Shown here: positions 3,313-54,330 of the stretch, in pieces
Layout of the letters: every line of letters begins with the position of its first letter
Numbering within the stretch: position 1 is the first letter of the stretch
NCBI GenBank assembly: GCA_963555815.3
Contig: CAUVWX020000001.1
Coordinates: 768,001-832,000 of the forward strand
Source of the DNA: a bacterium
GTDB taxonomy: Bacteria; UBA8248; JACPRG01; G963555815
Direction of reading: 5' to 3'
Length of the DNA: 64,000 bases
The notes under the pieces: model-generated
Seen by the model: only the letters and a program-made list of their open reading frames with translations
Told to the model about the DNA's origin: nothing
Databases searched by the model: none
Position numbers and translations under genes: made by a program

Positions 3313-4194
3313 ATGGCGACCCTTCGGGTCATCCGACGACGGATCACCAGTGTCAGGAAGACCCAGCAAGTGACCCGGGCCATGAAGTTTGTGGCGGCGA
3401 CGAAGCTCCGCCGGGCCCAACAGCGCATTACCAACGCCCGCCCCCATGCCGACAAGATGGCGGAGGTGGCGGCGAGCCTTGCCCGGCGGACAGATCCCGC
3501 CAGGCACCCCCTCCTTGTGGCCCGGCCCGTGCGGCGCCTTTTGTTGGTCCCGGTGACCTCTGACAAAGGCCTCTGTGGCGCCTATAACGCCAACGTGCTG
3601 AGATCTACCCTCGACCTTATTCAAAGCCGAAGCGAGCAGGCAGAGGTGCTGGCCGTCTCCGTCGTCGCCATCGGGAAAAAAGGGCGGGACCTCTTCGCCT
3701 ATCGCAGGATGGAGATCGAGCGGGAGTTCATCGGGTACTATGGCCACGTGGAGTATGCCCTGGCGACCGAGATCGCAGATTACCTCATCGAGGCCTTTCA
3801 GGAGAGGCGGGCCGACGAGGTGACCTTCATCTATAATAAGTTCCTATCGGCCGTCCAGCAGTGCGTGACCATAGAGCCCATCCTTCCCCTCAGACTCCTG
3901 GCCCCCCAGGAGGAGACCGCTGGCGTCGAGGAGGAGGACTTTCTCTACGAGCCCTCTGTGGACGGTGTCCTCTCGGGTCTCCTCCCTCGCCACCTCTACA
4001 CCCAGGTCTTTCGGATCCTCCTCGATGCCGATGCCAGCGAGCACGGGGCCCGCATGGTGGCTATGGACAACGCGACGAATAACGCCTCGGACATGATCAC
4101 TGACCTCACTCGCCGCTTGAACAGGACTCGTCAGGCCGCCATCACTAGGGAGCTTATCGAGGTAGTCAGCGGGGCGGATGCCCTGCGGGGGTGA
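3313..4194 (+). CDS. atpG: ATP synthase F1 subunit gamma
   Basis: TSDKGLCGAYN, SEHGARMVAMDNAT, RQAAITRELIEVVSGA. Confidence 0.98.
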   Translation: MATLRVIRRRITSVRKTQQVTRAMKFVAATKLRRAQQRITNARPHADKMAEVAASLARRTDPARHPLLVARPVRRLLLVPVTSDKGLCGAYNANVLRSTLDLIQSRSEQAEVLAVSVVAIGKKGRDLFAYRRMEIEREFIGYYGHVEYALATEIADYLIEAFQERRADEVTFIYNKFLSAVQQCVTIEPILPLRLLAPQEETAGVEEEDFLYEPSVDGVLSGLLPRHLYTQVFRILLDADASEHGARMVAMDNATNNASDMITDLTRRLNRTRQAAITRELIEVVSGADALRG

Positions 4195-44546: not shown

Positions 44547-45275
44547 TCAAGACCTCCGCTTTCCCCTTAGCCGAGGCGCGCTTTTCTCTCCGGGCAGGTT
44601 TTTTAAGGGATAGACGCATTCTTTCATAAGAGGGCATTCCCAACAGTGGGGTTTTCTCGCCTGGCAGATATATTTGCCGAACTTCCACATGTGGATGTGG
44701 GTGGAGTAGGCCTTTCCCGGCGGAAGGAGGGCGGCCATCTCAAAGTGGGCTTTTGCGGCCGAGCAATTTTCGGGGATGAGGCCGAGCCGCAGGCAAACCC
44801 GGTGGACGTGCGTGTCCACGGGAAACGCGTCCTTCTCGAAGGTGAACATCAGGACGACGCTCAGAGTTTTTGGGCCGATCCCTTTGAGGTGCCCAATAAC
44901 CTTCTGAGCCCCCTTCAGATCTAGATCTTTCAGGAAGTCGGCGGAAAGCTCCCCGTGGGTCTTTTTTAGCCAGCGCAAAAGATCCCGAATGCGGCGGCTT
45001 TTTTGCCCCGCCAGGCCCCCCGGTCGGATGGCTTTTTCGATGGCCCGGGGGGAGGCGCGCATAACGTCTTCCCAGCTGGAAAAACGCTCCCGTAGGCGCC
45101 CGTAGGCCAGGTCGCGGTTCGCGTCCGTCGTATTTTGGGAGAGCATGGTGAGGATGAGGGAGCTCAGGGGGTCTCGCCCGTCCGGCCGCCACCTGACCGG
45201 CCTAAAGAGCGAGGACAGGACAGAGATGACCCGCCGGGTCTTTCTCTTCAGTTCAGGACGGGTAGGGGTCGCCAT
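44547..45275 (-). CDS. nth: endonuclease III-like HhH-GPD DNA glycosylase
   Basis: LSQNTTD, GIGPKT, FPVDTHV, 4Fe-4S motif C-x6-C-x2-C-x5-C. Confidence 0.9.
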   Translation of the reverse strand: MATPTRPELKRKTRRVISVLSSLFRPVRWRPDGRDPLSSLILTMLSQNTTDANRDLAYGRLRERFSSWEDVMRASPRAIEKAIRPGGLAGQKSRRIRDLLRWLKKTHGELSADFLKDLDLKGAQKVIGHLKGIGPKTLSVVLMFTFEKDAFPVDTHVHRVCLRLGLIPENCSAAKAHFEMAALLPPGKAYSTHIHMWKFGKYICQARKPHCWECPLMKECVYPLKNLPGEKSAPRLRGKRRS

Positions 45276-45336
45276 GGCGATTATATAGTTAACAAACCCA
45301 CTATTAGTTTAAAGCATTGAATGCATTTATAATTAC

Positions 45337-45486
45337 TCATTTCTTCTTACGCCCTTTCCCGCCCTTTTTCGGCTTGTTTGGTGGTGGCTTCGCCTTCAAG
45401 AGGTCGCTGACCACCTCCTCAAAGGGCAAGCCCTCAAAGGAAAGAGGCCCCTTATCCCCCCTTTTGGATCTTTTCGTCTGAGCCAT
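45337..45486 (-). CDS. 49-aa basic passenger protein (not in the ORF track)
   Basis: MAQTKRSKRGDKGPLSFEGLPFEEVVSDLLKAKPPPNKPKKGGKGRKKK; GGGGA SD-like sequence upstream. Confidence 0.6.
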   Translation of the reverse strand: MAQTKRSKRGDKGPLSFEGLPFEEVVSDLLKAKPPPNKPKKGGKGRKKK

Positions 45487-45581
45487 CACACATCCCCCAA
45501 AAAAGCTATCAGTTTTTTCTTAACACAGGTTGATTAGACTACTAGTATTAGACTAGCCTTACAGTTCTGAAAGGGGGAACC

Positions 45582-46031
45582 ATGATTAGACTTTGGATAG
45601 GTGATGTGAAAGTTGAGTGCGACACCCCTGCGGAGGCCTCCGAAATTGTCCGGCTGGTGGGGTCTCAGAGGCAGAGGCGCTCTTCTCAGAGGTTTCCATC
45701 CGAACTTCTTCAGAATTTAGCAGCCGGGCTTTCATCTGCCCCTCCACATGGGCTTGAGGTTCCGTTTCTCCAGACAATCACAGCGTCTGGGAAAGGGGTC
45801 TCTTCGAAAGACCTCGCCTCAACGCTGGGAGTAAAAAAAACGACCGCTTTGGGCCCCATTTCCAGAGCCACAGAAAAGACGTTGAGGAGCATAGGGGAAG
45901 AGCCCCGGGATGTCTATGGGATTGACAGAGAAGGACAAGTCCCTTTATGGGTTCCTGGCCCTAGAGCAAAAGAGGCTTTGAGAAAGATGGAAGGATCTGA
46001 AGGAGATCAAATGCACAGACCCCAAAAGTAA
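45582..46031 (+). CDS. hypothetical IS passenger protein, possible helix-turn-helix
   Basis: 149-aa ORF with SD AAGGGGG; GVSSKDLASTLGV..TALGP is HTH-like. Confidence 0.6.
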   Translation: MIRLWIGDVKVECDTPAEASEIVRLVGSQRQRRSSQRFPSELLQNLAAGLSSAPPHGLEVPFLQTITASGKGVSSKDLASTLGVKKTTALGPISRATEKTLRSIGEEPRDVYGIDREGQVPLWVPGPRAKEALRKMEGSEGDQMHRPQK

Positions 46032-46102
46032 AACAGCCCCCGCCAGCTGATACTGGCGAGGGCTATTATACAGGAGAACCCCGGAGGGCCTCTCCCTTAC
46101 AC
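46030..46102 (-). ncRNA. putative small RNA 1 (promoter-hairpin-terminator unit)
   Basis: TTGACA (46137-46132)-N17-TAAAGT (46114-46109); terminator AGCCCTCGCCAG/CTGGCGGGGGCT-GTTTT pairs fully (one U-G) only on the minus strand. Confidence 0.55.
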
Positions 46103-46216
46103 ATATTCACTTTAGGCCCTCTCGGTCCTCCTGTCAAGGAGGCAATCGTGAGGGCCTTTCTGTTTATGTGGCCCGGACCCATCCGTGCACCAACCCTTTC
46201 CTAAAAACGGGTCGGT

Positions 46217-46305
46217 GCGCCAGTGGTGGAATCGGTAGACACGGCGGGTCTGGGACCCGCCATTTAGCGAGGATATGTTGGTTCGAATCCGGCCTAGCGC
46301 TCCCA
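46217..46305 (+). tRNA. non-canonical class II-like tRNA with anticodon TGG
   Basis: Acceptor GCGCCAG/CTAGCGC, D arm GTG-GAATCGGTAGA-CAC, anticodon arm GCGGG-TCTGGGA-CCCGC, 16-nt variable region, T arm GTTGG-TTCGAAT-CCGGC, then TCCCA. Confidence 0.7.
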
Positions 46306-46361
46306 CTCTATTTTTTCACTGGTCTTTTAGATAGTCAAATACATCAAGAGAGGTGGATGTT

Positions 46362-47279
46362 ATGGAAACCGACATCACCAAATTGGCCGAGTATTTCTCG
46401 GATGAGAAAAAGGCCATTGAGCTAATCGAAAGGCTCCGCTGGCCTGGGGGCCCTGTCTGCCCCCATTGTGAGTCGAAAAAAGCCTATCGGCTTCGAGTAA
46501 AGAGCTTAAGGCGGAAACTGTGGAAATGTGCCAAGTGCCGAAAACAGTTTTCGGTGATGGTGGGAACCATCTTTGAGGATTCCCATATACCCCTTAAAAA
46601 GTGGCTGGTGGCAATCTATCTTATGTGTTCCTCGAAGAAGGGCATTAGTGCTAATCAGCTTCATCGGAGCCTCAAGCTAACTTACAAATCTACCTGGTTC
46701 ATGTGCCATCGAATCAGATATGCCATGAGTCAGCCACTACTAGCAGACAAACTCAAAGGAATCATAGAGGCCGATGAGACCTACATTGGCGGAAAAGCGA
46801 GGGGGACGGTCGGACGAGGGGCAGACAAAAAGGTTCCGGTCCTGGCCCTAATTGAACGTGGCGGTAGGGCAAGGTCTTTTCTATTGCCTAATGTGGGCGG
46901 GGGGACAATCCGTTCCTTAATCAAAGGTCATGTAGAAATCGAGGCGGAGATTATGACAGACCAGTTTCCCTCCTACAAAGGGCTAGGCAAGCATTTTGCG
47001 GGCCACCATGTTGTTGAACACGGAAAGCAATATGTCCGAGGCATTGTGCACACCAACTTCGCTGAGAGCTATTTTAGCCTCCTCAAGCGGGGCATTATGG
47101 GCACCTTTCACCATGTCAGCGAAAAGCATCTGCCTTTCTACCTGGCCGAGTTTGACTTTAGGTGGAATGAGCGAGAACTTTTAGATGGAGACAGAACCGC
47201 AGAGGCCATCAAATGTATCGAGGGAAAAAGGTTGACCTATAAACAGCCAAGGAAAAGACAAAACAGGAAATCTTGGTAG
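46362..47279 (+). CDS. IS1595-family (ISXO2-like) DDE transposase
   Basis: Zn ribbon CPHC/CAKC, GTIFEDSHIPL, EADETYIGG, MTD, HTNFAESYFSLLKRG, YLAEFDFRWN. Confidence 0.95.
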   Translation: METDITKLAEYFSDEKKAIELIERLRWPGGPVCPHCESKKAYRLRVKSLRRKLWKCAKCRKQFSVMVGTIFEDSHIPLKKWLVAIYLMCSSKKGISANQLHRSLKLTYKSTWFMCHRIRYAMSQPLLADKLKGIIEADETYIGGKARGTVGRGADKKVPVLALIERGGRARSFLLPNVGGGTIRSLIKGHVEIEAEIMTDQFPSYKGLGKHFAGHHVVEHGKQYVRGIVHTNFAESYFSLLKRGIMGTFHHVSEKHLPFYLAEFDFRWNERELLDGDRTAEAIKCIEGKRLTYKQPRKRQNRKSW

Positions 47280-47314
47280 TGGGTCGTTTTGAGAGGTTCT
47301 AAGGACCAGGTGGG

Positions 47315-47350
47315 GCTTGCGAAATGTCAATTAATTGACATTTCGCAAGC
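47315..47350. repeat. perfect 36-bp palindrome
   Basis: GCTTGCGAAATGTCAATT|AATTGACATTTCGCAAGC. Confidence 0.95.
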
Positions 47351-47359
47351 TGGATGGGG

Positions 47360-47610
47360 TTATTTGAGGGACAGAAGGTGTTTTTTGGCGCAGTTTAAGT
47401 CAATTTAGAGATAGTTGATCATCTGTTTAATATGACCAATCTCAATTTCCGGATTTTCACTATTTCGTGGTCCCATTGGGAAACTCCGATATATTTTTCC
47501 ACCATAGCTTATCCAAATTCTATGCTCCTTTACCTGTCAGGTGTGTTCTGGCGCACATTCCTTTAGCATTTTTTGATTTTTCTTATACGAGCCGTGCCCC
47601 TGGTAGTCAC
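47360..47610 (-). pseudogene. decayed HicA-like toxin gene
   Basis: Reconstruction MTTRGTARIRKIKK/MLKECAPEHT*QVKEHRIWISYGGKIYRSFPMGPRNSENPEIEIGHIKQMINYL*IDLNCAKKHLLSLK; frameshift in the A-run 47569-47574, stops at 47537-47539 and 47405-47407; starts 3 nt after the stop of the upstream gene. Confidence 0.55.
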
Positions 47611-47613
47611 GGC

Positions 47614-48090
47614 TCAAGCAGCTAATGCTTTCTCTAGGTCTAAGATGTTGTTTTTTGCCGCCAGCTTTCCGACCCTTCTAATTTCAGGATAAGCAGATAA
47701 TTCAGCCTTCCGTCTAATCATTCCTTCGACCTGAATATCGCCGCTTCTAACCCTCTCGACAGCCTTCCACCATTTCTTGTCTGCATCCTTGGAGGTTTCC
47801 CCAACAAACCTGTGGACCTCTCTTTTAAAAGCGGAAAAATCTGCTGAACCCGCTGAAATATCAAACAAAACGGCTTTGAACGTTTGGAGGATTTGAAGAT
47901 AAGCCTCTCCCTCGTTCTTACCACTACCAGCGATGTCTCCTGGCTGAACGCCATACATCCAAACGTCTTCTTTTCCTTCCTGCACGGCAAGAACTCGCCC
48001 GCGAATATATACATCAACTAAAAACCCATTTCCTTCCACTTTTTCTCTAAAAGTCAAGAATAGTGGCAAATGGCCTCTGGCTGCAGCCAT
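47614..48090 (-). CDS. hypothetical protein, possible HicB-like antitoxin
   Basis: SD AGGAGG; beta-beta-beta-alpha pattern VWMYGVQPGDIAGSGKNEGEAY resembling HicB N-domains; coupled to the HicA-like remnant. Confidence 0.55.
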   Translation of the reverse strand: MAAARGHLPLFLTFREKVEGNGFLVDVYIRGRVLAVQEGKEDVWMYGVQPGDIAGSGKNEGEAYLQILQTFKAVLFDISAGSADFSAFKREVHRFVGETSKDADKKWWKAVERVRSGDIQVEGMIRRKAELSAYPEIRRVGKLAAKNNILDLEKALAA

Positions 48091-48223
48091 ACGCTACCTC
48101 CTTTTGGGTATTCTCGAATTTCCCAGAATAGCAATGAGTATATCTCTACCAACTATGGCTGTCAATGGTGCTTTTGTGGAGGGAATTTCATGGGGGCATG
48201 GCGGATTTCCTCCAAGTGGGGTC

Positions 48224-48322
48224 TTGACAAACCAACCCCTTTTCCGTAAATTCCCCTACGGTGAAGGAAATCTCTTAGTCTTTTGTGGCCGGAAACCGCT
48301 GGCGGGCGGTTCCGGCCTTTTT
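48224..48322 (+). ncRNA. putative small RNA 2 with its own promoter and intrinsic terminator
   Basis: TTGACA (48224-48229)-N17-TAAATT (48247-48252); ~60 nt later GGCCGGAAACCGC-loop-GCGGTTCCGGCC-TTTTT. Confidence 0.55.
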
Positions 48323-48535
48323 GCTATTAGGGCCGGATCCTCTGCTTCCTTCTACAACTCCTCGTTCACCAAATAAAATATAGCCTAGAATGGTGCGCCC
48401 GTCAATGGTTGTCCTTTTGGGTTTGTGAAAGGGATAATCGCCGTCGCCATAGGCGAAAATGTCACAAAAGTAAGGGTTTAGGCCCATATTGTGTGTTTCT
48501 CCACAGGGTTTTCCACAAGATGTGGAAATAACCCC

Positions 48536-54180: not shown

Positions 54181-54237
54181 GAAGGATCTGGCCCCCTTGA
54201 AGCCCTCGAAAGGGCCCCGGCTCGGCCAGCCGATTTC

Positions 54238-54321
54238 AACCGCTTCCCTACGCTGGCATTGCCCAGGTCAGGTTCAAAGGGTTGTCGGGAACCGACTCTC
54301 AGTCAGCCACCCCTAGCGGTT
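54238..54321 (-). promoter_or_regulatory. TPP riboswitch aptamer
   Basis: AGGGGTG..CTGAGA..ACCCTTTGAACCTGA..GG.AATGCC.GCGTAGGGAA upstream of thiSGE. Confidence 0.95.
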
Positions 54322-54330
54322 CTTTTAAAT

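Follow-up and report, generated by a model that had tools for sequence, protein, structure and literature searches.

An apparently decaying leucine-type tRNA gene with a proline (UGG) anticodon in an IS1595-family element, and its possible role as mobile mistranslating cargo

Introduction

Insertion sequences of the IS1595 family that carry passenger genes, termed transporter IS, were reportedly described by Siguier, Gagnevin and Chandler in 2009. The element considered here, which lies in a 64,000-nucleotide stretch of a bacterial genome (the window), shares with them an IS1595 DDE transposase, terminal inverted repeats (TIRs) of about 25 bp, an 8-bp target-site duplication (TSD), and passenger ORFs. 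It differs in that its passengers include a chimeric tRNA gene, and no paper on an IS1595 transporter IS with such a passenger was found in the literature searched.

The nearest described tRNAs are the allo-tRNAs, which combine a long variable arm with an anticodon mismatched to the body and occur near toxin-antitoxin (TA) systems; according to the available portion of the report by Mukai et al., some of them mistranslate and kill E. coli (PMC5389517). The same portion records an allo-tRNA pseudogene overlapping a transposon ORF, irregular 7/5 and 8/4 tRNAs near TA systems (restated in PMC7609411), and allo-tRNA(UAU) species near transposons that did not translate (PMC5389517). As far as that text goes, the window tRNA resembles the allo-tRNAs in pairing a non-cognate anticodon with a location near TA and transposon genes. 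In contrast to their 8/4 or 9/3 folds, tRNA-Sec-like tetraloop D arms, and Ser or Ala identity, however, it has a 7/5 fold in which the T stem is 5 bp long and the D loop Leu-type. True 8/4 allo-type genes are found in elements related to the window's, at loci L177 and L380, the latter in the same genome. In the text available from Mukai et al., IS elements are not delimited, unlike the TIR-bounded element of the window, and their supplementary file makes no mention of UGG, transposons or IS1 (PMC5389517).

Natural tRNAs dedicated to mistranslation are also known as tRNAProX in Streptomycetaceae; they are toxic in E. coli, and selection against the more toxic forms has been proposed (PMC10404621, available part). 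As described there, the direction is the reverse of that seen here, with a Pro body and Ala, Asn or Thr anticodons, and a dedicated synthetase (ProRSx) accompanies the tRNA, whereas the window element has none; transposons and mobile elements go unmentioned in the part of that paper available (PMC10404621). In the openly accessible literature searched, no description was found of a TIR-bounded IS carrying a Leu-body tRNA with a non-Leu anticodon, only of allo-tRNAs near transposons and TA genes.

The IS1595 element and its cargo

The element spans positions 45276-48442 of the window (3,167 bp), and the tRNA gene lies within its TIRs and TSD, as expected from the preliminary description, which had called the tRNA IS-borne. 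The features of the element are as follows.

45268..45275, no strand: left 8-bp target-site duplication GTCGCCAT; it holds the start codon of the nth-like gene (minus strand)
45276..45300, plus strand: left terminal inverted repeat of the IS1595 element, matching the right repeat at 17 of 22 bases
45520..45548, plus strand: sigma-70-like promoter match ahead of the passenger ORF, tRNA and transposase (consensus match only)
45582..46031, plus strand: passenger ORF P0002, 149 aa, with a weak helix-turn-helix (HTH) signal (Pfam HTH_10, E 0.002, below the cut-off)
46032..46137, minus strand: predicted small antisense RNA unit, with a promoter match at 46137-46109 and a 16-pair terminator hairpin at 46067-46032 (fold z = -6.6)
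46217..46305, plus strand: Leu-type class II tRNA gene with UGG anticodon, C33, C5-A68 mismatch, U73 (46301) and 3' CCCA (ARAGORN, Rfam and parse of the sequence)
46310..46338, minus strand: promoter match directed antisense across the tRNA (consensus match only)
46362..47279, plus strand: IS1595-family DDE transposase, 305 aa (NF033547, 215 bits against a cut-off of 75; PF12762, PF12760)
47315..47350, no strand: perfect 18-bp palindrome in the gap where the transposase and hicA-like genes converge
47360..47610, minus strand: broken HicA-like gene with two in-frame stops and a frameshift, 42% identical to the intact 85-aa P0009
47614..48090, minus strand: passenger ORF P0003, 158 aa, which likely encodes the HicB-like partner to the HicA-like gene; in L024, L099 and L364, the 85-aa gene comes after a P0003 homologue
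48418..48442, minus strand: right terminal inverted repeat
48443..48450, no strand: right 8-bp target-site duplication GTCGCCAT

An empty site was found in the genome of a sister species of the same genus (G001), where the flanks join with an 8-bp overlap. With its zinc-ribbon DDE transposase, TIRs, 8-bp TSD, and this empty site, the element displays every feature by which membership of the IS1595 family was judged. It is present as a single copy in the host genome (G000). The transposase follows the tRNA directly, as had been noted, its ATG at 46362 lying 56 nt past the tRNA end at 46305. The insertion falls right at the start codon of an endonuclease III-like (nth-like) gene (44547-45275, minus strand) and separates it from its upstream ABC-transporter neighbours. 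Elsewhere in the window, a TPP riboswitch (54228-54324, minus strand) lies upstream of thiS/thiG/thiE-like ORFs.

For the passenger P0002, the search found no homologues; its Atlas similarity to a DUF6416 cluster is 0.92, and its single-sequence structure model is unusable (pLDDT 40). The Atlas similarity of P0003 to HicB clusters reaches only 0.76-0.78. Elsewhere in the host genome, the intact 85-aa gene P0009 follows a homologue of P0003 (L024), an order repeated in L099 and L364. The P0009 family comprises 156 relatives, with a Pfam HicA match in one of 92 members, and no sequence match to a solved structure was found for it. The fold was examined on this intact homologue, looking for the alpha-beta3-alpha dsRBD-like fold of HicA: the model (pLDDT 87) has as its best, though weak, Foldseek match the E. 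coli HicAB chain 6hpb_A (prob 1.00, E 0.056), and VIA returned weak Z scores of 7.3-4.7 (rmsd 2.1-2.7), with HicA-type chains, by title, in four of the top six. On these model comparisons, P0003 and the broken gene of the 85-aa type probably form a HicBA-like module. Such pairs (window 47360-48090, minus strand; L024 4704-5461; L099; L364) are unannotated and have the antitoxin-like gene first. PADLOC gave only weak matches, to two of 16 passenger proteins, and nothing convincing; nor was any avoidance of CCA or CCG codons seen in the window element's own genes.

Structure and identity of the tRNA gene

ARAGORN reports a tRNA-Pro(tgg) at 46217-46303, and the Rfam match to RF00005 (40.2 bits against a gathering score of 29, E 5e-05) places the gene among tRNA cloverleaves. 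Together with a parse of the sequence, they bear out in full the cloverleaf first described: an acceptor stem GCGCCAG/CTAGCGC with C5-A68 as its single mismatch, the anticodon loop TC-TGG-GA (C33), a variable region of 16 nt, the T loop TTCGAAT, and a T-C-CCA end, that is, U73 followed by CCCA. The D arm is identical to that of the host tRNA-Leu(GAG) at 19 of 20 bases. Contigs X1 and X2, from two studies (one of which may be the source of the assembly), have no difference listed within the tRNA, which rules out assembly error for both the T-C-CCA end and C33; the same contigs exclude a sequencing error in the C run of the 3' end. The minimum-energy fold is a structure other than the cloverleaf (z = -1.14), and the anticodon arm can close as an 8-bp hairpin around UGG; this hairpin is not diagnostic, because the anticodon arm of the host's normal tRNA-Pro also folds to a 3-nt loop.

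LeuRS ignores the anticodon, and bacterial ProRS needs G72. The host ProRS is of the bacterial type, and the host has three normal tRNA-Pro genes. The host also encodes TrmD, and m1G37 is expected to stop C33 from pairing with G37.

Among the identity elements given in the available part of PMC9976931, LeuRS relies on A73 (the key determinant), A15-U48, G18G19 and A20a, and ProRS on C1-G72, A73 and G15-C48, with G35, G36 and then G37 in the tRNA-Pro anticodon loop; C2-G71 is listed as an antideterminant for SerRS. Like canonical tRNA-Leu, the window tRNA has a Leu-type D arm, A15-U48, G18G19, A20a, and a long variable region, with two unpaired bases after the variable stem, but this allele has neither the discriminator A73 (it has U73) nor A35, and C33 replaces U33. 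With canonical tRNA-Pro it shares the anticodon bases G35 and G36 and the adjoining G37, whereas the class I body with C1-G72, A73, G15-C48 and a short variable loop is replaced by G1-C72, U73, A15-U48 and a 16-nt variable region. The determinants of ProRS are thus missing at C72 and U73, as first claimed. The body had been called Leu- or Ser-type; the Leu half of that assignment stands, and the Ser half falls, as G73, the variable arm with one unpaired base, and G15-C48 as in host Ser tRNAs are all absent.

The fold had likewise been left as either 7/5 or a tRNA-Sec-like 8/5, and only the former survives. Instead of a paired 8-bp acceptor and a 6-bp D stem, the 8/5 reading would have a U-U first pair and a D stem of 3-4 bp, and the best Rfam clan match is RF00005 rather than RF01852. 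The 7/5 fold is preferred because the host's sole Leu(CAG) gene likewise ends in A-CCCA and because sister alleles have A at 46301, the 7/5 discriminator. The U-U pair, the A at 46301, and the out-of-register CCA in Leu(CAG) also led to rejection of the 8/5 and His-like (G-1:C73) readings. A CCA end is encoded in 45 of the 50 tRNA genes found by ARAGORN. A Gly-like acceptor end (G1-C72, C2-G71, G3-C70, U73) is confined to this allele, and glycylation was judged unlikely, as C35 and C36 are missing. Judged by its sequence, the body is Leu-type, neither Ser, Pro nor 8/5, and, joined to a UGG anticodon, it makes the tRNA the chimera that it had been taken for.

Sister alleles and decay of this copy

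Contigs from two further studies, X7 and X11, carry the element at the same site as the window. X7 differs from the window at 47 of 3,701 positions, with at least five differences in the tRNA among the differences listed. Both sister contigs have A at 46301 (A73) and C at 46264, 46265 and 46279; the first two of these C residues make the variable stem fully Watson-Crick, and the third does the same for the T stem. At 46299, the sister G>A change would unpair 2-71, unless it is compensated by a change in 46217-46247 beyond the differences listed. A73 and a paired variable arm are shared by all eight other Leu-type IS-linked tRNAs that were parsed, so that, of the five states in the window, four appear derived. 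The HicA-like gene points in this direction too, as X7 is different at each of its three breaks (two stops and the frameshift). In X11, a deletion of 759 nt has removed most of the transposase.

Between alleles, the tRNA has 5 differences in 85 nt (5.9%) versus 25 in 1,029 nt (2.4%) in other non-coding DNA (P = 0.056), and coding DNA has 9 in 1,845 nt (0.5%), of which eight are non-synonymous; there is no sign of purifying selection on this tRNA copy. The window copy thus appears to be a decaying allele that has lost the A73 and the variable-arm pairing of sister strains, and it is probably weak or dead. Its decay may have been neutral or selected. The loss of A73 and of variable-arm pairing relative to sister strains had been overlooked in the preliminary description.

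Related IS-linked tRNAs

A tree of transposases, built by a quick method from 46 of 75 rows, groups the window with L331, L094 (the same as L333) and L093 (SH-aLRT 90), and a Leu-body UGG tRNA accompanies three of these four transposases, L093 being the exception. In L331 (transposase 63% identical), the tRNA lies inside the repeats, 630 nt downstream on the opposite strand, with the loop UU-UGG-AA (U33) and without an encoded CCA. In L333 (54% identical), it lies about 1 kb downstream on the same strand, again with UU-UGG-AA, and retains A15-U48, A73, U33 and CCA. The host genome holds two further odd tRNA genes.

L020 8009-8096 (= G000:C1:981508-981595), minus strand: second Leu-body UGG tRNA of the host, with loop CC-TGG-GA (C33), U15, A73 and CCA
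L380 ~4052-4137 (= G000:C1 ~678550-678640), plus strand: third odd host tRNA, of 8/4 allo-type, with UAA anticodon and A73, missed by ARAGORN

The tRNA of L020 lies in a 1,968-bp IS1-like element bounded by TIRs and a TSD, 158 nt upstream of the transposase, and forms the 3' end of a passenger ORF, encoding its last 30 residues in frame. That of L380 belongs to a different IS1-like element, which also carries Fic and HARE-HTH passengers and whose transposase has a rare TTA codon at an invariant Leu. All three non-canonical tRNA-like genes found in the host genome are thus inside TIR-bounded elements, which make up 0.8% of it. Three of the four UGG copies are imperfect, namely those of the window, L020 (U15, C33) and L331 (no encoded CCA).

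The preliminary description had proposed looking for covariation and variable anticodons in relatives, and both were seen. Among eight aligned Leu-type tRNAs, 96.8% of 190 cells hold standard pairs, and 17 of 24 pairs change on both sides; the anticodons of the Leu-type copies (UGG, GUC, UGU and GAA) are non-Leu, and the stems are still paired. Covariation is a weak discriminator here, because it is expected in any tRNA set of separate origin, and the IS-linked Leu-type bodies share 53-60% identity with one another, which does not exceed their identity to Leu tRNAs of the host. Compared at the sequence level, the eight copies show that structure has been maintained, though the bodies may have separate origins. 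The case of a randomly decayed, isolated capture, which had been named as the refutation of a functional tRNA, does not fit the relatives, which carry the same Leu-body UGG design with paired stems.

Across IS-linked loci, the scaffolds and anticodons include Leu-GUC (whose copies lie downstream of the transposase, antisense), Leu-UGU, Leu-GAA, Ser-UAU, Tyr-like UGA, short-arm U73 bodies with GGA or GGC, and an 8/4 allo-UAU. An odd tRNA occupies a slot 158-181 nt upstream of the transposase in six of the eight closest IS1-like elements, and in four of these six it directly follows or overlaps a coiled-coil/HARE-HTH-like ORF. L364 has a coiled-coil/HTH ORF and no tRNA, and L331 has no HTH or TA gene; there is no fixed partner gene for the IS-borne tRNAs. 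Genes of TA type abound in the nearby cargo (Gp49+HTH, Fic, Panacea, PemK and PIN, and the HicA-like gene in the window element), and not every such element has a tRNA.

ARAGORN tallies, which count any tRNA, canonical neighbours included, were 1/19 for GTDB IS1595 loci, 4/67 for metagenome loci, 4/30 for IS1595 loci of the phylum (plus L333 by Rfam; the tRNA-Pro of L337 is canonical and was excluded from the odd count), 8/20 for IS1-like loci of the phylum (plus L322 by Rfam; L325 is an ordinary Glu gene), 2/8 for viral loci, and 6/28 for Acidobacteriota loci (L396 looks ordinary). Relaxed ARAGORN thresholds yielded noise only. No TIR pair was found on the contigs of L333, L234, L175 and L033, so their tRNAs were not placed inside repeats.

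C33 was rejected as a family marker: the C33 class II pattern occurred only in the host genome among 51 genomes of the phylum and in none of 401 Acidobacteriota, and L331 and L333 have U33. Its matches at 65 viral loci, many of them phage Leu tRNAs, had no transposase match. A looser pattern gave 10 matches in nine of 351 Alphaproteobacteria, of which five came from reading ordinary Leu(TAG) genes out of register.

Several further observations concern other tRNA-like genes. IS-linked short-arm tRNAs with mismatched bodies are present at L369, L370, L371, L391, L393, L407, L411 and L417, as U73 bodies with GGA, GGC or UGA or as a Glu-like body with UAG; L369 and L370 have two tRNAs each. Many phage contigs among viral loci L187-L294 carry Leu-type bodies with Gly, Asn, Ala, Glu, Pro or Ser anticodons, such as the Leu-body UGG of L204, and show no IS1595 or IS1-like transposase match. 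Small phage contigs among viral loci L101-L164 carry a recurring degenerate tRNA-like family, mostly missed by ARAGORN, with the acceptor AGTCAGG...CCTGACT and the loop CCCRYAA. Finally, an int-alpA RNA (RF02996; L176, 1090-1169) lies just inside the left end of an IS1-like element.

Possible roles of the tRNA

The reading that we favour, and to which we give about an even chance, is that the window tRNA is a decaying copy of a mobile tRNA that likely inserts Leu for Pro and acts as toxic cargo. The tRNA would be transcribed from the left-end promoter together with the HTH-like ORF, processed by RNase P, and subjected to CCA repair; alleles with A73 would, by the identity rules, be leucylated by LeuRS, and the charged tRNA would read CCA and CCG, leading to misincorporation of Leu for Pro. 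Among the public runs listed as containing the sequence, none was of RNA, which counts neither for nor against expression. An active copy would be harmful, because CCA and CCG make up about 36% of the Pro codons in long ORFs of the host. Beside the TA modules, its role could be a selfish one, in addiction or abortive defence, with C33 and the antisense promoters restraining it; in mistranslating tRNAs found in nature, U33 is often exchanged for another base, and decoding is curtailed by G33 (PMC11415595). A73, the variable-arm pairs, and the HicA-like toxin would have been lost in the window lineage after the element became stuck. That the Leu-body UGG design recurs in the closest related elements, and once more in another IS within the host genome, argues for mistranslation, although the window allele itself may do nothing, because it is without A73, the key Leu determinant.

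Much of the same evidence bears on a decoy that never enters the ribosome, a tRNA-like RNA that would absorb an anticodon nuclease, a TA RNase or a synthetase and so protect the host tRNA-Pro or counter a toxin. Anticodons that vary widely across elements (UGG, GUC, UGU, GAA, UAU, UAA, UAG, GGA and GGC), C33 in both UGG copies of the host, and an RNase-type HicA-like gene in the same element would all suit it, as would the transposon- and TA-linked tRNAs that, in the available text of Mukai et al., were charged but unused in translation, or inactive (PMC5389517). A decoy has no need of LeuRS determinants, however, yet A73 is present in all eight other Leu-type copies, and L331 and L020 are without a HicA-like gene; we consider the decoy rather unlikely. 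Distinctly less expected is a functionless passenger, a captured host or phage tRNA-Leu that gained A35G and drifts neutrally. UGG is indeed one change from Leu UAG, alleles diverge at or above the non-coding rate with eight of nine coding differences non-synonymous, and odd-anticodon Leu-type bodies also occur in phage contigs without a transposase match. Drift sits poorly, though, with a UGG design found again, its stems intact, both in a second IS family and alongside transposases of lineages that share only 54-63% identity, and with the fixed slot 158-181 nt upstream of the transposase in six of the eight closest IS1-like elements.

Two further explanations turn on the transposase. Regulation in trans, by which the tRNA would tune or poison its own transposase through matched codons at key residues, could account for some codon choices: the C-terminal Pro (window residue 296) is encoded by CCA in all three Leu-UGG IS1595 carriers versus six of the 18 others that have Pro at this site, CCA encodes an invariant Pro in the transposase of L020, and at column 230 of the IS1-like transposase alignment the codon of an invariant Leu matches the UAA or UAG anticodon in four of four carriers (L388, L382, L311 and L315) versus CTA or TTA in six of 19 others, these comparisons being post hoc. 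Two of the four anticodon loops among L388, L382, L311 and L315 are imperfect. Over 16 carriers, however, anticodon-matched codons at conserved columns numbered 12 against 9.9 +/- 2.2 expected, which is no overall excess (window 0/1), and codons read by the tRNA were not at Leu- or Ser-dominated columns, save for one of eight in L175; self-regulation is, to us, as improbable as neutral passage. A search for a recoding key, with Pro codons at Leu columns of the transposase, found none. The preliminary description had also suggested a cis-acting RNase P or RNase Z processing signal controlling the transposase mRNA, in keeping with the tRNA's place on the same strand, 56 nt upstream here and 158-181 nt upstream in several IS1-like elements. 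This suggestion fared worst and is very improbable, because position and strand vary: tRNAs of the same type lie 630 nt downstream on the opposite strand in L331 and about 1 kb downstream in L333, and Leu-GUC lies downstream and antisense. Such a signal would, moreover, need neither A73 nor an anticodon loop.

Implications

Returning to mistranslation as the favoured reading, we can tentatively extend it beyond this locus: IS1 and IS1595 elements may spread code-breaking tRNAs, with a Leu, Ser, Tyr, Cys or Glu scaffold and a swappable anticodon, as an RNA toxin. Restraint would come from a winged-helix protein encoded upstream, from antisense RNAs, and from changes in the anticodon loop; its release would mistranslate the proteome (here, Leu for Pro) for addiction or abortive infection, and hosts would silence it by mutation, of which the window allele and its dead HicA-like toxin would be an example.

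ARAGORN names such genes tRNA-Pro, tRNA-Asp or tRNA-Ile by the anticodon alone, so that tRNA counts are inflated and possible mistranslators are hidden. Leu-for-Pro tRNAs might, in addition, be put to use as tools for mistranslation. Since 2017, metagenomes have yielded orphan tRNAs whose anticodons do not match their bodies, with no clear home or role; here, they are found inside delimited, recently mobile elements. To this the locus adds a genome with three carriers, a Leu-UGG cargo shared at the level of a clade, and polarised alleles in which the tRNA and a toxin decay together. One relative is intact and another attenuated, and the insertion itself exists as two natural alleles, so that whether, and why, mobile elements deliberately mistranslate the host code becomes directly testable.
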